Source of the DNA: Gemmatimonadota bacterium
GTDB taxonomy: Bacteria; Gemmatimonadota; Gemmatimonadetes; Palauibacterales; Palauibacteraceae
Direction: 5' to 3'
Assembly: GCA_965116475.1 (NCBI GenBank)
Contig: OZ220691.1
Location: 256,001-320,000 of the forward strand
DNA length: 64,000 bases
The notes under the pieces were generated by a model. That model did no database searches. It worked only from the letters and a program-made list of their open reading frames with translations, and was not told the DNA's origin. Made by a program: the position numbers and the translations under genes. Of the stretch, positions 3,561-39,577 are shown in pieces (position 1 is the first letter of the stretch; each line of letters opens with the position of its first letter).

Positions 3561-4729
3561 CCTTCTCCGCGGACCCGCTGCGCCTCACAACCGTCCTCAC
3601 GGACCTCGTCTCCACCAACTCGGTGAACCCGTCCCTCGTGGAGGGGGCCCCCGGCGAGGCGGAGATCGCGACACTCACGATGCGGCACCTGCTCGAGGCG
3701 AGCCTCGAAGTGACCCGGTACGAGCCGGAGGCGGGCCGGCCGAGCATCGTCGGGCGCCTCGAGGGCGCGGGGGAAGGGCCGGCGCTGATGCTGAACGCCC
3801 ACTACGACACGGTCGGCGTGGAGGGCATGGACGCGCCGTTCTCGCCGAGCATACGGGACGGTCGGCTCTACGGACGCGGCGCCTACGACATGAAAGGGGC
3901 GCTGGCCGCCTGTATCGAGGCCGCCCGCCTCCTCCGCGAATCCGAAACGCGCCTTGCCGGCGATGTCCTCGTGGCCGCGGTGGCCGACGAGGAGTACGCG
4001 AGCCTGGGCACCGCGGACCTGCTCGAACGGCGCGCGCGGGGGGAACTCGCCTTCGACGCCGCGATCGTCACCGAGCCCACATCGCTGGAGTTGTGCGTGG
4101 CCCACCGCGGATTCACGTGGGTCGAGATCGTGACGCGCGGACGCGCCGCCCACGGAAGCCGCTACGGGGACGGCATCGATGCGAACCTGCGCATGGGACG
4201 CGTCCTGCACCGGCTGGAGGCGTTCATTGAGGAGCTCCAGTCCCGGCCGGGGCACCCCCTCCTCGGCCCGCCGTCGATGCACGCGGCGCTGGTGGAGGGC
4301 GGGAGCGGGATCAGCACCTACTCCCCGCGCTGCACGCTCAAGGTCGAGCGGCGGACCGTGCCGCCCGAGACGCGGGAGTCCGTGGAGGGCGAGATCGCGG
4401 CCCTGATCGAGGATCTGCGCGCGGAGGACCCATCCCTCGAGGTCGACTGGTCGACCTTCTTCCACCGCGAGCCCTTCGAGACGACGCCGGAGGCGCCGGT
4501 CGCGGCCTGCGTATCGCGCGCCGTCCGCACCGTGTTCGGCCGGATGCCGGATGTCATCGGCGATTCCCCCTGGATGGACTCCGCCCTGACGCAGGCCGCG
4601 GGCGTCGACAGCGTCGTGATCGGCCCGCACGGCGCGGGCGCGCATGCCGACGAGGAATGGGTGGACCTCGAATCGTGTGCGCGGCTGGCCGAAATCCTCG
4701 CCGGGGCGGCCGCCGACTACTGCGCCTGA
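3557..4729 (+). CDS. M20 family ArgE/DapE-like deacylase
   Basis: LMLNAHYDTV, LYGRGAYDMKG, VADEE, IVTEPT, GRAAHGS, GAHADEEWV. Confidence 0.92.
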   Translation: MTFSADPLRLTTVLTDLVSTNSVNPSLVEGAPGEAEIATLTMRHLLEASLEVTRYEPEAGRPSIVGRLEGAGEGPALMLNAHYDTVGVEGMDAPFSPSIRDGRLYGRGAYDMKGALAACIEAARLLRESETRLAGDVLVAAVADEEYASLGTADLLERRARGELAFDAAIVTEPTSLELCVAHRGFTWVEIVTRGRAAHGSRYGDGIDANLRMGRVLHRLEAFIEELQSRPGHPLLGPPSMHAALVEGGSGISTYSPRCTLKVERRTVPPETRESVEGEIAALIEDLRAEDPSLEVDWSTFFHREPFETTPEAPVAACVSRAVRTVFGRMPDVIGDSPWMDSALTQAAGVDSVVIGPHGAGAHADEEWVDLESCARLAEILAGAAADYCA

Positions 4730-4730
4730 T

Positions 4731-6905
4731 TCAGCGGGCGAACAGGTCCTCGACGGACAGCCCCATCCGCAGCTTCCGTTCTATCGCCCCCTGCCAACCC
4801 GCGGGACGGGCATCGAACAGGTTGTCGACGCCGGCGACCAGCCTGAGGCCTCGCCCGAGATCGACGGAGGTCTGCAGGTCGATGGCCACGAACCGCTCCT
4901 GCGTGCCGATCGTCGCGTCGCTCCCATCGGGACCCGTCCCAATGATCGGCGCGGCGCCCGTGAGATGCGCCGTGGCATCCAGGCTCAATCCGGAGTGCGC
5001 CTCGGCGGTCCACGCCGCCCGGACGCGCGCGGAGTGTGCGGCGCGCCGGTCCAGCGGGAGTCCCGAGTCGACCGCGTATGCGTCGAGGTACGCGTAGCCT
5101 GCGGCGAACTCCGCCCCACCCAGGACGGCGCGGAGGCTGAACTCGAACCCGCGCGTGACCGCTTCCGCGACGTTCCGGGGGGAGAGGATGAGGAGACCGC
5201 TCTCGGCATTCCCGACGAACCCCGGCTCGATGAGGTTCCGAATCCGGTTGGAAAAGCCCTCGACCCCGACCCGAACCGTCGCTGCCGGCTGCCAGTCCAC
5301 CCCGCCGGAGATGTTCCACGAGCGCTCCGGATCCAGTTCCGGGAACCCCTGGAGGACATAACCGCCCCCCACGTTGACGAAGTTCCATGCCAGCTCCTTG
5401 AAGGACGGCGCCCGGAAACCGCGGGCCACCGCGGCCCGCAGATGCACGTGCGCTCCGGCGCGCCGGGTCACGCCCACGGTCGGCGAGAGGTTCGAGCCCC
5501 AGCGGTCGTTCCAGGTGAGGCGGGCGCCGCCGCTCAACACGGTGCCTCCGAGACGCCAGGCGTCCTGCGCGAAGAGCGCGAGTTGCCGGTCGGCCGCACG
5601 CTCCTCGACGAGCTTGTCGGGCGACCGAATCGCGCGGCTCGCGACCTCGAGACCGACGTCGACCGAATGCCCGCCCAGGGCGGCCGAATACCCCGCGGCG
5701 CCCTTCGCGAGACGCTCCCACTGCGTGGCTTCGCCGTCATCGGCGATGGGAGCATCTCCACGGGCGCTTCGGTACAGGTGCTCGTATTCCTGAAGAAAGA
5801 GACTTCCGCTCCACGTCCCGGGACCCAGCGGCCGTCGCGCCTCGACCCACCCGGAGAATCCCGCGTTGTCGTTGAACCCCGAGAACGCGCCGCCCACCGG
5901 CCAGCGCTGCCGCTCGCGAAGGTAGGTGGCGGTGGCGCGAAGGTCCCACGCGTCCGACGCCTTGAACTGAAGGCGGGACCGGAAGTCCCAGACGCGGGCG
6001 AAGGCGCTCGGCCCCCGGTCGGCGAGCCCCGGGATCCGGTCTTCCTGGCGCCAGCCGCCCGTGATTCGATATCGGAGGCGGCCCCCGCCGCTTGCCGTCG
6101 CCTCTGCCTCGCGGCGTCCGGCACCGCCCGACAAGGCGCGCGCCCCGACCCGAAACCCCGCAGCCGGAAGCTGCGTGATGACGTTCACGACGCCGCCGAG
6201 CGCATCGGAGCCGTACAGGGACGAGAGGGGGCCCTTCACGATCTCCACCCGCTCCACGCCCGCCAGCGACATGCGGCTCAGGTCGCGGTTCTCCAGCAGC
6301 GCACCCGCGGTCGGTTGACCGTCGAGGAGGACGAGGACGCGGGCGCCGCCGACGCCCCGGATCATGAGGTTCGAGCCGACCGGAGCAGCGGCCGTCACCT
6401 GGACGCCGGGAAGCTCCGCCAGCAGCCGGTCCGCGGCCGCGACGCCGGCCGCGTCGATCTCCTCGGCTTCCACCGTCGCCATCGGCACCGCGATCTGCGA
6501 GCGGAGCCGCGGGAGCGGGCTTGCCGTGACGACGATTTCGTCGAGCGCCAGCGGGTCGCGCTCGAGCCCGATTCGCCATCCCGCCTCGATCGCATCCCGT
6601 CCGGCGAGGGTGCGGGAACGGTACCCAAGCGCCGAGACGATGACGGCGCCTCCGGAGTCCCAGCTCGCGTCGGGAACGAAGGAACCGCCAGCGTCCGTGC
6701 GCACCGCGGCTCCACGGGCGACCGAATCCGGCGAGACGCCGGCGAGGGGGTCCGGCATCCACGCCACCTCGGCGTCGGAGATCGCCGCCCCCGATTCGAG
6801 ATCGTAGACGCGCCCCTCCGACTGAGCCCAGGCCGCGTGCGGCCGGAGGATGCCGACGGCGCCGATGGCGACGCAAAGCGCCAGCCGGGCGACGCGCACC
6901 CTCAT
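4731..6905 (-). CDS. TonB-dependent receptor (probable haem receptor, HmuR-like)
   Basis: LDEIVVTA, plug RVEIVKGPLSSLYGSDALGGVVNVIT, GFRAPSF, PELDPERS, GVDNLFD; ATGA overlap with the HmuY gene. Confidence 0.9.
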   Translation of the reverse strand: MRVRVARLALCVAIGAVGILRPHAAWAQSEGRVYDLESGAAISDAEVAWMPDPLAGVSPDSVARGAAVRTDAGGSFVPDASWDSGGAVIVSALGYRSRTLAGRDAIEAGWRIGLERDPLALDEIVVTASPLPRLRSQIAVPMATVEAEEIDAAGVAAADRLLAELPGVQVTAAAPVGSNLMIRGVGGARVLVLLDGQPTAGALLENRDLSRMSLAGVERVEIVKGPLSSLYGSDALGGVVNVITQLPAAGFRVGARALSGGAGRREAEATASGGGRLRYRITGGWRQEDRIPGLADRGPSAFARVWDFRSRLQFKASDAWDLRATATYLRERQRWPVGGAFSGFNDNAGFSGWVEARRPLGPGTWSGSLFLQEYEHLYRSARGDAPIADDGEATQWERLAKGAAGYSAALGGHSVDVGLEVASRAIRSPDKLVEERAADRQLALFAQDAWRLGGTVLSGGARLTWNDRWGSNLSPTVGVTRRAGAHVHLRAAVARGFRAPSFKELAWNFVNVGGGYVLQGFPELDPERSWNISGGVDWQPAATVRVGVEGFSNRIRNLIEPGFVGNAESGLLILSPRNVAEAVTRGFEFSLRAVLGGAEFAAGYAYLDAYAVDSGLPLDRRAAHSARVRAAWTAEAHSGLSLDATAHLTGAAPIIGTGPDGSDATIGTQERFVAIDLQTSVDLGRGLRLVAGVDNLFDARPAGWQGAIERKLRMGLSVEDLFAR

Positions 6906-7981
6906 CGGAGCCGCTGGAACCTCAAGGAGGGGAAGCCCGAATCCCCGGTCGCATTGTAGTAGTCGAAGAGCTGCACCTTGTAGACCTCCTCGGCCACCCG
7001 GACGAGGAAGACATTGTACGTCGGCCACATTCGATTGCTCTGCCGGATGCTGTACCAGAACGTGCCCTGCGCATCGGATGTCGTGGCCGGAAACGCGCCG
7101 GCGATCGTCGAGAGGAAGCCGGCATAATCCGGCGCGTCGTCGGCCCGGGCCAGCGCGGTGAAGTCGTCCGTCGCGTCGAGCGGGAAGGTTCCCGCCCCGC
7201 AGGCTTCGTTCACCAGTATCGTGAACTCGGGCGACGTCGCGACGTCCCAGTCGCAACCGGCGGGGTCGCGCACGATCCCGTTCGACAGGCCCACGTACAC
7301 GGGACCGCGAGTGAGATCGAGCGCGAGAGTCTCCGGCGCGCCGAGGCTGCCGCCCGGATCGTGGCGGCGGAACTGGATGGTCGCCCCCACCGGCCTCTCT
7401 CCCTGCATCGCGATGTCCACCATGCGAATCACGCCGTACCCGCGTCCCGAACCCTCGCGCAACTTCCAGGCCGCGGCGGGATTCGCGACGATCGAGCCCC
7501 GTTGGGGATCGAAGCGGAACCACGACGGGCCCGTCTCGGGCGACAGGACATCTTCGACGAATCCCGCCGCCGGGATGTCAGCGGCCGTGACCGCCTCGAA
7601 CGCCGCTTCCCCATCCTGCGGGGTCAGCGCCGCGACCTGATCGGCCGTCAGGCCCGCGTTGTTCCCCAGGCTGACCGCCGACACGGAGCCGGGGCCCGCA
7701 ACGCCCCCGTTCAACCGGACGGAAAACCTGCGGAACGCCATGTCCCACGACGTGGAACCACCGGGGTCCGCGGGGCTCTGGACCGCCCCGCCACCGGTCA
7801 GGCTCACATAGGCGAAGGAGACGGGCGAGGAAGCGTCGATCGAGATCACGCCTTCTTCGAACGTTTCCTCCTCGGGGGGCGCGGCGACTTCCGACTCGCA
7901 TCCCGCAGCGGCCGCGAGCATGAAAGGAATCGTCAGCGCGCGGAGCGGAATCCGCGGCGCGACGGGCAGGCATCGATACAT
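6902..7981 (-). CDS. hmuY: HmuY-family haem-binding lipoprotein
   Basis: Lipobox AAAGC; WDMAFRRFSVRLNGG and YKVQLFDYY..GDSGFPSLRF typical of HmuY; GGAGA RBS. Confidence 0.8.
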   Translation of the reverse strand: MYRCLPVAPRIPLRALTIPFMLAAAAGCESEVAAPPEEETFEEGVISIDASSPVSFAYVSLTGGGAVQSPADPGGSTSWDMAFRRFSVRLNGGVAGPGSVSAVSLGNNAGLTADQVAALTPQDGEAAFEAVTAADIPAAGFVEDVLSPETGPSWFRFDPQRGSIVANPAAAWKLREGSGRGYGVIRMVDIAMQGERPVGATIQFRRHDPGGSLGAPETLALDLTRGPVYVGLSNGIVRDPAGCDWDVATSPEFTILVNEACGAGTFPLDATDDFTALARADDAPDYAGFLSTIAGAFPATTSDAQGTFWYSIRQSNRMWPTYNVFLVRVAEEVYKVQLFDYYNATGDSGFPSLRFQRLR

Positions 7982-8021
7982 GTAAACATCTCCGTGTCGA
8001 GATCCAGCGCCGTTCGGGGGT

Positions 8022-9026
8022 TCATGGCCGCTCGCGGACGGGTGACGGCGCGCGCCTTCCCGCGGCAGTCGTACAGGGTCCGAGCGGTGAGACGAAACCG
8101 TTGGCGCAGAAGCGCGCCCTGGCCTTCGCCGCAATCCAGTCGGTGATGAGGGGATGGGGCAGGAAGCCTTCGGTGGCGGTGTATTCGAGACCCTCCAGCA
8201 CGTCGGCGTAGGGCCCGAAGCCTGACACGCGGTACGGGATCACGAGGACGTGCCGGTGACGCTCACCCATTCCGACCACCAGCGTCCTGATCCGCGCCTC
8301 TGCCTCCTCCCTCTCGCTGGCCCAGTCTTCTCTCAGCGTGCCGACGTGGACCTCCGCGTAGCCGTCGTCCCGCAGCGCACCGGCTGCGTCCTCCATGGAG
8401 CGGAGCACCCGCCGGTCCTCTCCTTCATCTCCCATGCCATGGGCGAGCAGCAGTACGCCGCTCTCGGCGGCAGTTACACCGGCGGTCGCGGCCCGGTCGG
8501 CCAGAATACGAGCGGCCTGGCCGGATCCTCCCAGTCCCTCGGTCTCCAGCAGGATCCGGCTGCCGTTCGCGAGCGGCTCGAGTTCCGTCCCGCTCACCAT
8601 TCGGTGTCCCACCATCGCGCGCTTGGGCGGGTCCGGACGGAGCCCGAGCAGGAACTCCGTCGGGTGCAGGAACGACGCCCCGGACACGAACAGCCTCACG
8701 ACGGCCACCGTGTTCACATCCTCGTCCGCCAGGGCGTCGAGGGCGGTCTGCATCGTCTCCGGGTTGGCCATGCCCAGCGCCAGGGACACGGGGATCTTCT
8801 CGCGGAGCGGCCGCACGGCGTCCTCGACCCGTCCGTTCCACTCCTCCCCACCCCCGTGCGCCATGACGAGCATCCCGGGCCGCGGCTCCGGGGCAGGCGC
8901 AACTCCCGCGCGTTCCGGACCGGAACCCCGTTCGACGTCCGGCTGCGGTCCCCCTGCGGACGCGCAGCCGCTCAGCACCCAGAACAATCCAAGGGCGGCG
9001 ACAGGCGCCCCCGACCCATTCGACAT
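8022..9026 (-). CDS. CbiX/SirB-like class II chelatase with a lipoprotein signal
   Basis: Two chelatase-type half domains (LVMAHGG...VVRLFVSG and LLLAHGMGD...LVIPY); N-terminal LGLFWVLSGC lipobox. Confidence 0.75.
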   Translation of the reverse strand: MSNGSGAPVAALGLFWVLSGCASAGGPQPDVERGSGPERAGVAPAPEPRPGMLVMAHGGGEEWNGRVEDAVRPLREKIPVSLALGMANPETMQTALDALADEDVNTVAVVRLFVSGASFLHPTEFLLGLRPDPPKRAMVGHRMVSGTELEPLANGSRILLETEGLGGSGQAARILADRAATAGVTAAESGVLLLAHGMGDEGEDRRVLRSMEDAAGALRDDGYAEVHVGTLREDWASEREEAEARIRTLVVGMGERHRHVLVIPYRVSGFGPYADVLEGLEYTATEGFLPHPLITDWIAAKARARFCANGFVSPLGPCTTAAGRRAPSPVRERP

Positions 9027-9048
9027 CGACTCGACCCCGGCATGAAGT

Positions 9049-9067
9049 GATAATGAGAATCATTCTC
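9049..9067. promoter_or_regulatory. Fur box
   Basis: GATAATGAGAATCATTCTC matches the GATAATGATAATCATTATC consensus at 17/19, 22 nt upstream of the chelatase start. Confidence 0.88.
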
Positions 9068-9071
9068 AACT

Positions 9072-9099
9072 ATAATAGTCAGATGAAGATGCGCGTCAC
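9072..9099 (-). promoter_or_regulatory. Putative sigma70 promoter of the chelatase-hmuY-receptor operon
   Basis: Minus strand GTGACG-N16-TATTAT immediately upstream of the Fur box. Confidence 0.5.
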
Positions 9100-9115
9100 T
9101 TGAGGGGAGTGCAAG

Positions 9116-10048
9116 CTATGATGCCGGGCGCTGGCCGGGGCCGCCCGTCCGGGCCGCGCCGGTCCATTCGAGGCTCCGGTCCCAGAGTTCGCGGGCGAGA
9201 TCCTCGTCGTAGGCCTGGGCCGTCGCGGCGACCTCGGAGTCCACTTTGAAATACCGCCCGGTGACCTCGTCGCGGGCGGGGTCCCCCACGAGCCGCATCA
9301 CGGCCCGGCCGCCGACTTCGGGCTTCGCCATCAGGCCCTTGGCCGCGTTCAGAAGCAGGCCCAGCGCGCTCCGGTTCTTCCGCCAGATCTGTGTACGGAG
9401 GACGCCGGGGTGGACGGCGTTCGCGGTGATCCCGCGGGCGCTCCAGCGGCGCACCGATTCGAAGGTGAAGAGGGCGTTGGCCAGCTTCGTATCGCCGTAG
9501 GCCTGGAAGCCGCCCTTCCAGGCGTCGCCGCGGACGATGGCCTCGAGGGGAGCGCGGCGCAGGTCCCCGTTTCGGTGTGCTTCGGAGCTCACGTTGACGA
9601 TCCGGCCGCGCCCGGCCGCGAGCGGCGCGAGGAGCCGATGGGTGAGGAGGAAATGGCCGAGGTGGTTCGTCGCGAACGTGATCTCGAAGCCATCGGACGT
9701 GATCTCGCGCCGATGGAGCCAGACGCCGGCGTTGTTCACGAGGATGTCGATCGCGGGAGCGTGGGCGGCAAGGCGGTCGGCCAGAGCACGAACATCGTCC
9801 TGCAACGAGAGGTCGGCGAGTTCGAGGCGGACATCCGTGTCCGCCGCCGCGTCCGCCGCGGCCCGCGCTTGCCGCACGTCGGCAAGCGCCGACTCCCCCC
9901 GCTCGCGGCTGCGGCACACCAGGGTCACGTCAGCGCCGGCCCGGGCGAGGAGTTCGGCGGCGGACTTCCCGACGCCCGAGTTCGCGCCGGTGACGACGGC
10001 GATCTGCCCTTTCAGGCCGAGGTCCGTTCCATCCGGGGTCTCCGTCAT
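9116..10048 (-). CDS. SDR family oxidoreductase (retinol dehydrogenase-like)
   Basis: VTGANSGVG, LVNNAG, ATNHLGHFLLT, YGDTK catalytic YxxxK, VHPG. Confidence 0.93.
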   Translation of the reverse strand: MTETPDGTDLGLKGQIAVVTGANSGVGKSAAELLARAGADVTLVCRSRERGESALADVRQARAAADAAADTDVRLELADLSLQDDVRALADRLAAHAPAIDILVNNAGVWLHRREITSDGFEITFATNHLGHFLLTHRLLAPLAAGRGRIVNVSSEAHRNGDLRRAPLEAIVRGDAWKGGFQAYGDTKLANALFTFESVRRWSARGITANAVHPGVLRTQIWRKNRSALGLLLNAAKGLMAKPEVGGRAVMRLVGDPARDEVTGRYFKVDSEVAATAQAYDEDLARELWDRSLEWTGAARTGGPGQRPAS

Positions 10049-39558: not shown

Positions 39559-39577
39559 GTTATTGATAATGAGATTC
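39559..39577. promoter_or_regulatory. Possible weak Fur box upstream of the susC-like gene
   Basis: GTTATT-GATAAT-GAGATT-C, 13/19 to consensus; AT-rich patch overlapping the nudC stop. Confidence 0.35.

Follow-up and report, generated by a model that had tools for sequence, protein, structure and literature searches.

The pairing of a TonB-dependent receptor with an exported class II chelatase lipoprotein is already known from the Iht system of Porphyromonas gingivalis (IhtA and IhtB, the latter also named FetB), in which IhtB is described as a putative reverse ferrochelatase (excerpts of PMC12094164). In the hmu operon of Bacteroidota (HmuY-HmuR-HmuS-HmuTUV), the HmuY-family lipoprotein has a TonB receptor as its partner, and HmuS takes iron off haem without cleaving the ring, yielding Fe(II) (excerpts of PMC12583661). 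Here we describe an operon at positions 4731 to 9099 of a 64-kb stretch of DNA (the window; positions 256,001 to 320,000 of contig OZ220691.1, assembly GCA_965116475.1) from a Gemmatimonadota bacterium of the Palauibacterales. It combines an exported lipoprotein predicted to have the class II chelatase fold with an HmuY-family lipoprotein and a TonB-dependent receptor, all behind a Fur-family operator. We interpret it, tentatively and at somewhat less than an even chance, as an outer-membrane module induced by iron starvation that takes iron from haem or a close metallo-tetrapyrrole, with the chelatase-like protein acting in reverse.

Like Iht, the nearest of the known systems, the locus encodes an exported chelatase-fold lipoprotein together with a TonB-dependent receptor and has a tie to haem or iron. 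However, FetB is CbiK-like, with 37% identity to Salmonella CbiK (excerpts of PMC13065792), whereas the cassette protein is nearest to SirB and CbiX and carries the histidine of an AHG motif in both halves. IhtB has been drawn on the cell surface, whereas receptor fusions point to the periplasm for the cassette's chelatase-like protein. The iht operon has an ABC transporter, IhtCDE, and no HmuY; the cassette has HmuY and no inner-membrane transporter. The iht transcripts were unresponsive to iron or haem starvation according to parts of PMC12094164, whereas the cassette lies behind a Fur-type operator. From the Iht-type set (receptor, CbiK-like lipoprotein and IhtCDE), the receptor and a chelatase-fold lipoprotein are present and the complete set is not.

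The iron route of Bacteroides is FeoB (excerpts of PMC6460266). With the hmu operon, the cassette shares the HmuY-receptor pair and, as proposed below, the removal of iron from haem without ring cleavage. The full hmu gene set is not found: the genome is without CobN/HmuS, the cassette is without hmuTUV-like genes, and its chelatase-like gene comes first, unlike in the hmu operon. HmuS is large, membrane-bound, NADH-dependent and of class I type, whereas the cassette protein has 334 amino acids (aa) and an ATP-independent class II fold.

CbiK(P) of Desulfovibrio vulgaris (2xvx/2xvz) is a CbiK-family protein that is not known to be a lipoprotein; Romao et al. reportedly described its haem site and oligomer in 2011, and we know of no HmuY linkage or receptor fusion for it. 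It resembles the cassette protein as a class II chelatase in the periplasm that binds metalloporphyrins (excerpts of PMC13065792), and it matches the cassette model with a Z score of 16.1. The cytoplasmic SirB and CbiX are the best fold match and share an AHG histidine after the first strand. Unlike them, the cassette protein is sent out of the cytoplasm, and its gene follows a Fur-family operator and has no tetrapyrrole biosynthesis gene next to it. Residues 127-165 form an insertion, roughly 40 residues long, in which His141 is conserved, and there are additional conserved Arg and Trp residues.

Compared with these systems, the new elements are a SirB/CbiX-like family with histidines in both halves, its linkage to HmuY instead of HmuS or ABC genes, the Fur-type operator with a small regulon, the receptor fusions, and a spread over four phyla. 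The parts of the literature that were searched hold no account of an exported SirB/CbiX-like family linked to HmuY, which does not prove that none exists, and a paper on Palauibacterales ecogenomics contains no occurrence of heme, TonB, chelatase or siderophore. The genome is a single contig of 3.62 Mb with 69.4% G+C (69.5% in the window) and is 96.3% complete. Its closest protein relatives come from Candidatus Palauibacter (Gemmatimonadota), many from sponge-associated bins.

The operon and its three proteins

The operon and its control region consist of the following features, with all three genes on the minus strand.

9072..9099, minus strand: promoter-like site with −35 GTGACG (9099-9094), a 16-nucleotide (nt) spacer and −10 TATTAT (9077-9072); a consensus match only
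9049..9068, no strand assigned: Fur-family operator, made up of a 19-mer (9049-9067) and the palindromic 7-1-7 core TGAGAATcATTCTCA at 9054-9068
9026..8022, minus strand: exported lipoprotein of 334 aa with a lipobox and a predicted class II chelatase fold
7981..6902, minus strand: HmuY-family lipoprotein of 359 aa (Pfam HmuY, lipobox)
6905..4731, minus strand: TonB-dependent receptor of 724 aa with plug and barrel domains

The genes are tightly packed. A gap of 40 nt separates the chelatase-like from the hmuY-like gene, the hmuY-like stop and the receptor start overlap as ATGA, and a convergent M20 peptidase gene abuts the receptor end of the operon. At the other end, 89 nt (9027-9115) lie between the end of an SDR gene and ATG 9026. 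The candidate −35/−10 matches the consensus at 9 of 12 positions, and the region 4500-9300 has three promoter-like sites versus 0.2 expected from shuffles. The operator is spaced 4 nt from the −10 and 22 nt from ATG 9026. A search of the 64-kb window, including the 89-nt leader, found no Rfam family at its gathering score. The first-pass annotation had described three co-directional genes behind a 17/19 Fur box just downstream of a −10 element, and an 89-bp gap too short for a cobalamin riboswitch; the arrangement, the spacing and the size of the gap were confirmed, and the window is without an Rfam riboswitch match.

The chelatase-like protein begins with a signal and lipobox (residues 1-21, V-L-S-G-C21, with the Cys21 codon at 8964-8966) and has AHG motifs at His57 (8856-8858) and His196 (8439-8441), as annotated in the first pass. 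ATG 9026 is the first start codon of its open frame. A scan of one genome per species yielded 314 stretches encoding a relative, from which the best 79 loci were retrieved. Among these, 30 have the gene order chelatase-like gene, hmuY, receptor (triads), 40 lack it with a downstream flank of 3.5 kb or more, and nine are too short to judge. L051 (genome G017), which is flagged as unpublished, contributes single rows to these counts and carries none of the conclusions. A lipobox or hydrophobic signal precedes the AHG motif or the fold in 72 of the 79 loci (42 with a strict lipobox and 30 with another hydrophobic signal), and the C-terminal pair Cys307/Cys318 is conserved in close relatives. Because the signal or lipobox and this cysteine pair are conserved, we regard the family as extracytoplasmic and a start downstream of the lipobox as not credible. 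The proposal of an exported lipoprotein was thus borne out across the homologues.

Pfam CbiX (PF01903) scored the protein at 18.3 bits against a cut-off of 22 and covered only residues 61-117; some relatives pass this cut-off. An NCBIfam scan of the protein gave no match, a single-sequence search of the PDB found no relative, and a profile of 34 relatives reached the solved CbiX 3lyh only at an E value of 0.28. An AlphaFold2 (AF2) model based on 34 relatives, with a predicted local distance difference test score (pLDDT) of 86.7, clearly predicts the class II (ATP-independent) chelatase fold: two Rossmann-like alpha/beta domains with four-stranded parallel sheets and a central cleft. The model was compared by Foldseek and then by VIA-align Z scores. 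Foldseek placed SirB 5zt9 first (E 1e-7, template modelling score TMt 0.72). VIA-align gave Z 18.4 for SirB (root-mean-square deviation 3.1 Å over 231 residues), 16.8 for Pp-CbiX of Paracoccus, 16.1 for CbiK(P) 2xvz, 15.5 for FetB 9b86, and about 16-17 for coproporphyrin and protoporphyrin ferrochelatases (CpfC about 17). The earlier label "CbiX-type" therefore holds at the level of the fold only, because the Pfam CbiX score is below the cut-off.

Residue conservation was analysed among 70 diverse members. His57 is found at 66 of 66 non-gap positions and His196 in 68 of 70, and Trp63, Met86, Arg178, Arg232, Asp234 and Arg239 are near-invariant. The candidates for a second histidine (121/141 and 291) are less conserved than His57 and His196 (44 of 49 members have His141, and 51 of 70 have His291). 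In the model, His57, Met86, Arg111, His196, Arg232, Asp234 and Arg266 are positioned at the C-terminal ends of beta-strands, which form the cleft, and strand 1 ends at His57 in one half and at His196 in the other. His57 also aligns with the AHG histidine of CbiX 3lyh in the profile alignment (E 0.28). Class II chelatases have their catalytic histidine pair either in the N-terminal half (SirB, CbiXL) or in the C-terminal half (CbiK, Pp-CbiX), according to excerpts of PMC4063343; the family described here retains the strand-1 histidine in both halves. Contigs from a sponge RNA library (run X1) extend over the chelatase-like gene at about 90-96% identity. We make no claim of expression, because such contigs do not prove transcription and their depth cannot rank genes.

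The second protein belongs to the HmuY family, with a Pfam HmuY (PF14064) score of 49 bits against a cut-off of 27 and a sequence match to HmuY 3h8t in the PDB at E 1e-6, and as in that family it is a lipoprotein encoded next to a TonB-dependent receptor. It is about 150 aa longer than the solved HmuY members. Its model is poor (pLDDT 57.9), and the top eight Foldseek matches are all HmuY-family structures. A reading of the ligand site from this model was dropped, as the pLDDT was too low. All 35 of the 35 sequences compared share the lipobox cysteine, Cys28 (7898-7900); Met192 occurs in 29 of 35 and Met318 in 28 of 30, and several tyrosines are conserved. In the window protein, this cysteine opens the acidic stretch C-E-S-E-V. 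Two or three acidic residues follow the cysteine (CESEV, CEDDV, CDSAD) in all 12 HmuY-like rows that include it, whereas 23 of 24 rows have none after the chelatase-like cysteine. In Bacteroidetes, lipoproteins are directed to the surface by an acidic signal behind the cysteine (excerpts of PMC5080379), and by analogy the HmuY-like protein is probably on the cell surface. A second, short HmuY-family gene (G000:C1:3557597-3557983; L089 7559-8203) is solitary, with a ParA/NUBPL-type ATPase and unrelated genes as neighbours and no receptor or operator nearby.

The receptor starts with a signal peptide and some 100 aa of N-terminal extension, followed by a plug (79.5 bits) and a barrel (135 bits; both Pfam). 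Its nearest solved chains are CirA, BtuB, FepA and PhuR, and its FRAP box (F497-P500) is invariant. The scores of the NCBIfam models lie below the cut-offs both for BtuB (TonB-B12 TIGR01779, 141.4 bits versus 599.7; PRK10641, 106.2 versus 836) and for the HmuR subfamily (TonB-hemin TIGR01785, 123.6 bits versus 316.85), and we place the receptor in no subfamily. By these scores, the receptor is less likely to be an HmuR, and haem transport would still be possible.

The operator and its regulon

The 19-mer at 9049-9067, GATAATGAGAATCATTCTC on the plus strand, agrees at 17 of 19 positions (16 of 19 in gene orientation) with the E. coli Fur consensus. By base composition, matches of at least 17/19 are expected 4e-6 times per 64-kb window and 2e-4 times per 3.62-Mb genome. 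The runner-up in the window, GTTATTGATAATGAGATTC at 39559-39577, reaches 13/19, a level at which chance alone would give about 0.34 matches; an open reading frame (ORF) of 1161 aa either contains it or begins there.

Genome-wide, the core TGAGAATnATTCTCA has four matches of at least 12/14 (0.70 expected), two of at least 13/14 (0.024 expected) and one of 14/14 (0.0004 expected). The four sites are located at the chelatase-like operon, at an operon of an HHH lipoprotein and PepSY_TM, between the divergent feoA and feoB, and at a position without a clear gene. In the 21 genomes of the operator survey (the present one and 20 relatives), 12 carry 19 sites with at most one mismatch. The 18 of these that were retrieved are found at the chelatase-like gene (five), HHH/PepSY_TM (eight), feoA (one), a Peripla_BP_2 and ABC operon (one, a perfect match) and unrelated genes (three). 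A core of at least 12/14 lies upstream of the chelatase-like gene in 25 of the 30 triads and in 23 of 47 other loci, compared with a background of 2 in 1981 windows of 400 nt.

The operator is thus placed at the promoter and shared with iron-uptake genes, in a genome with four Fur-family genes, as in a Fur regulon, and the content of the regulon points to iron as the signal. The first-pass annotation had favoured iron over B12; the sharing of the operator with feoAB and PepSY_TM, and the location of the cobalamin riboswitches at a separate locus, bear this out. Regulation by Zur or in response to another metal was considered; since the operator is otherwise found at feoAB and PepSY_TM, we rejected this for the genome in hand, with znuA promoters outside the comparison. 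One locus of the family (L054) adjoins ZnuA and CusF and has no operator.

Further observations concern the operator in other settings. The operon of the HHH lipoprotein (243 aa) and PepSY_TM at G000:C1:1534926-1536921 (L084/L109) is preceded by a 13/14 operator, and this pairing of operator and HHH lipoprotein/PepSY_TM recurs in seven relatives. Directly after the feoA/feoB operator there is a second palindrome, CGATAATCGTTATCG (G000:C1:2775250-2775270), which may be a site for another Fur-family paralogue. In Rhodothermota and Bacteroidota loci (L010, L013, L014, L017, L033, L034, L067, L072, L076-L079), the palindrome TTAGAnnnnnTCTAA replaces TGAGAATnATTCTCA upstream of the chelatase-like gene and is presumably the operator of those phyla's own regulator.

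The chelatase-like family

Among 8000 candidates scored, 558 matched the family, and an exhaustive search of clusters at 50% identity yielded 1168 (E <=1e-3), 831 (1e-10) or 308 (1e-30). The members are spread over Gemmatimonadota, Rhodothermota, Bacteroidota and Acidobacteriota, and databases give them either no name or "sirohydrochlorin chelatase".

The genes flanking the 30 triads vary between genomes. We found no inner-membrane or ABC transporter in the cassette or in the scanned flanks of 17 triad loci, where the scan covered 39 of 60 candidate ORFs. Because the flanks differ, we conclude that the three genes travel as a cassette without an inner-membrane transporter. A profile built here detected HmuY beside a receptor in five more loci with other gene orders, which brings the pairing to 35 of 79. 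Three loci of sponge Rhodothermales have the chelatase-like gene followed at a distance by receptor and hmuY, and Rubrivirga litoralis (L061) and a Rhodothermus have receptor, hmuY and chelatase-like gene. HmuY linkage therefore occurs in three gene orders and two phyla. The neighbourhood expected from the first-pass annotation was recovered in this sense, in 30 triads and five other HmuY arrangements, but not as a general rule, as 40 of the 79 loci are without the triad. Two Gemmatimonadota loci, L075 (4805-5773) and L048 (5065-5790), have the order TonB receptor, membrane protein, chelatase-like gene; the middle gene encodes a multi-pass protein that is conserved and matches no Pfam family.

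One contig from the sponge RNA library joins window position 4745 to 8035, skipping 3289 nt with 14 other letters inserted, and the hmuY-receptor pair looks like a presence/absence polymorphism. In L008 (5955-6961), the chelatase-like match is split (best segment residues 91-323) and no hmuY or receptor follows; a perfect operator is retained, and this copy may be decaying.

We built a quick maximum-likelihood tree with support from the Shimodaira-Hasegawa-like approximate likelihood ratio test (SH-aLRT). It holds 74 of 80 rows, with L013, L029, L059, L040, L047 and L066 left out as partial or interrupted. One clade (SH-aLRT 99) contains all 29 triad rows, three Rhodothermales rows and seven unlinked rows. 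The loci with the order receptor, hmuY, chelatase-like gene are in the other half, so HmuY-linked arrangements occur in both halves of the tree. The sponge Rhodothermales L010, L014, L017 and L033-L035 nest within the Gemmatimonadota triad clade (SH-aLRT 100), which may reflect transfer between phyla sharing a host. L023, labelled Gammaproteobacteria, also nests among Gemmatimonadota triads and may be a binning error.

Three family members are fused to receptors. P0260 (1069 aa), P0270 (1008 aa) and P0271 (1099 aa) consist of a signal, a chelatase-like domain, a plug and a barrel, and at least one of them is labelled Bryobacterales and was found on 15 contigs. P0260 and P0271 have, in addition, a CarboxypepD_reg domain ahead of the plug. 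The end of the chelatase-like domain of P0260 coincides with the point to which the window receptor aligns with its mature N-terminus. The receptor parts are distant from the window receptor (30% identity over extension and plug). In TonB receptors, the parts N-terminal to the plug are periplasmic. Because the fusions place the chelatase-like domain N-terminal to the plug, we locate it at the periplasmic mouth of a receptor. Tandem duplications of the chelatase-like unit, 550-600 aa long, are common (P0158, P0172, P0176, P0183 and many others), and a few very long proteins join the unit to FmdE, NosD or copper amine oxidase N-terminal domains.

Haem iron: proposed route and alternatives

A search of the genome found no CobN/HmuS (PF02514), haem oxygenase, HemS/ChuS, Dyp or ABM/IsdG, and no second CbiX; ChuW/HutW and HutZ/HugZ were not searched. 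The lack of HmuS beside the cassette, on which the first-pass annotation had built, thus holds for the genome as a whole. Two divergent cobalamin riboswitches lie at 1.63 Mb (G000:C1:1629762-1631095; L092). Downstream of one are a TonB receptor with a CarboxypepD_reg extension and unannotated genes, and downstream of the other are FecCD, an ABC ATPase, CobD and an aminotransferase. Since this FecCD permease is the only one in the genome, B12 uptake is covered there, and no FecCD-type importer is left for haem or a siderophore. The genome also encodes the ferrochelatase HemH, so imported haem would be wanted for its iron and not as a cofactor.

We propose the following route. When iron is plentiful, a Fur-family repressor on the TGAGAATcATTCTCA operator after the −10 would block the promoter, and when iron is scarce, the three genes would be co-transcribed. 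The HmuY-family lipoprotein, sorted to the surface, would capture the ligand, and the TonB-dependent receptor would import it. The chelatase-fold lipoprotein, on the periplasmic face of the outer membrane and presumably docked beside the receptor, would take the ligand into its His/Arg-lined cleft. Acting as a reverse chelatase, it would release Fe(II) for uptake by the co-regulated FeoAB and keep the porphyrin from the cytoplasm. The PepSY_TM membrane protein may provide a reduction step. We infer haem as ligand and reverse as the direction of chemistry; iron extraction in the periplasm is the most economical scheme, because no haem route into or within the cytoplasm is visible and FeoAB is under the same operator. 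HmuS, which removes iron from haem by reverse chelatase chemistry, is a real precedent (excerpts of PMC12583661). The first-pass reading is thus supported in part: the operon, the export of its first protein, the fold and the link to iron hold, and haem binding and reverse action of the chelatase-like protein stay at the level of a proposal.

Several observations weigh against this reading. Of the two receptor models, the B12 one gives a slightly better score than the haemin one, and neither score comes near its cut-off. Haem receptors have a conserved histidine between the FRAP and NPNL boxes, and this receptor has none between FRAP and the following PE(L) box. In 35 sequences, the HmuY-like family has no conserved histidine, and the sole His207 is kept in 17 of 35. 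The haem ligands of HmuY are His/His in P. gingivalis and His/Met or Met/Met in others, and some members bind by the ring only (excerpts of PMC12106395). Among the features of the locus, only membership of the HmuY family would point to haem. In the receptor-fused forms of the chelatase, His291 is replaced by Asp, and FetB, the closest analogue with tested activity, inserted Co and Mn and had no reverse activity with haemin in the conditions of that study, according to excerpts of PMC13065792. Among the 79 loci, 40 (with at least 3.5 kb downstream) lack the triad order, five of them with HmuY within 6 kb in a different arrangement. The loci L006, L007 and L057 of three close Palauibacter relatives keep the chelatase-like gene in its place between SDR and M20 with no hmuY or receptor, and some distant members adjoin CusF/ZnuA or a multicopper oxidase. 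Because loci without these partners exist, the chelatase-like protein is not strictly dependent on HmuY and the receptor. L047 and L049 have half-sites of the TGAAAAT type, and the regulator at the operator could be a Fur paralogue responding to a different metal. Haem-degrading proteins of the ChuW/HutW or HutZ/HugZ families could also exist in the genome.

The same operon, regulation and haem cargo would be compatible with a chelatase-like lipoprotein that only binds its ligand, as acceptor, shuttle or store, or that exchanges metals in the forward direction, as FetB does when it makes Mn-PPIX; the iron would then come free elsewhere or through another enzyme. We consider this rather unlikely, yet a serious alternative: both exported class II proteins with solved structures bind metalloporphyrins, FetB works forward and not in reverse (excerpts of PMC13065792), and both CbiK(P) 2xvz and FetB 9b86 match the model (Z 16.1 and 15.5). 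The receptor fusions and the gene linkage would suit an acceptor as well as an enzyme. However, a shuttle would be without a visible destination, as no inner-membrane haem importer is evident (the lone FecCD is in the B12 locus) and five families that release iron from haem were not found by the searches above. The organism also makes its own haem (HemH), and both chelatase-type histidines are kept in nearly all members. A cargo other than a tetrapyrrole is also on the improbable side, and likewise a serious alternative. Here a ferric chelate or metallophore would be imported, and the chelatase-fold protein would bind Fe2+ or the metallophore after reduction by PepSY_TM and pass it to FeoAB. 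The co-regulation of PepSY_TM and FeoAB would suit such a route, as would the at least 40 loci that are without the HmuY triad and often keep the operator. CusF, ZnuA, a YHS-ABC ATPase or a multicopper oxidase is encoded next to some distant members, and L075 and L048 have the receptor and then a multi-pass membrane protein instead of HmuY. By the titles of PDB entries, SirB-type sites bind Co, Ni and Fe directly, and the class II chelatase fold resembles periplasmic binding proteins (excerpts of PMC12583661). Against this, the HmuY-family members treated in the excerpts of PMC12106395 bind haem or porphyrin, and the HmuY linkage holds in three gene orders and two phyla. Several invariant arginines at strand ends suggest a ligand bearing carboxylates, although a carboxylate siderophore would fit too.

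Two further explanations have much less in their favour. Salvage of cobalamin or another corrinoid, with a BtuB-like receptor, a corrinoid-binding HmuY-like protein and a chelatase-like protein that binds corrinoids or handles cobalt, is very unlikely. It would explain why the receptor's best NCBIfam match is TonB-B12 and why BtuB is among its nearest solved chains, and the relatives CbiX, CbiK and SirB do work in cobalamin or sirohaem synthesis. However, the 141 bits of that match are far under the cut-off of 599.7, neither the 89-nt leader nor the window has a riboswitch, the operator is common to feoAB, and the two cobalamin riboswitches stand elsewhere with a receptor, FecCD, an ABC ATPase and CobD. 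That the protein is simply a cytoplasmic sirohydrochlorin chelatase of the ordinary kind, starting at Met52 beside coincidental neighbours, is scarcely credible. Met52 and Met55 do just precede the fold, and the name is given to relatives by some databases. But 72 of 79 loci retain the hydrophobic segment or lipobox, ATG 9026 has the promoter and operator immediately before it, the gene linkage and receptor fusions argue against coincidence, and the protein misses the Pfam cut-off and has no NCBIfam match.

The release of iron from haem without haem oxygenase is only now being resolved, with the de-chelatase HmuS shown in 2025, and the role of the exported class II chelatases IhtB/FetB and CbiK(P) is still argued. 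The cassette offers a compact test case, with three genes, one operator and no cytoplasmic partner. It occurs in marine and sponge bacteria that are abundant and uncultured, genetic work is possible in Rubrivirga litoralis, a carrier that is in culture, and the receptor fusions supply a concrete, testable topology. That the whole exported family represents a third, widespread route to haem iron, in which small class II chelatases docked on or fused to the periplasmic end of TonB receptors work in reverse, pass Fe(II) to FeoAB and keep the porphyrin outside the cytoplasm, is a doubtful but possible extension. If the reverse reaction is true, the family would constitute a new enzyme class in haem-iron acquisition, and many annotations would be corrected. 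If the protein is only a binder or metal chaperone, it would still be a new periplasmic partner of TonB receptors.

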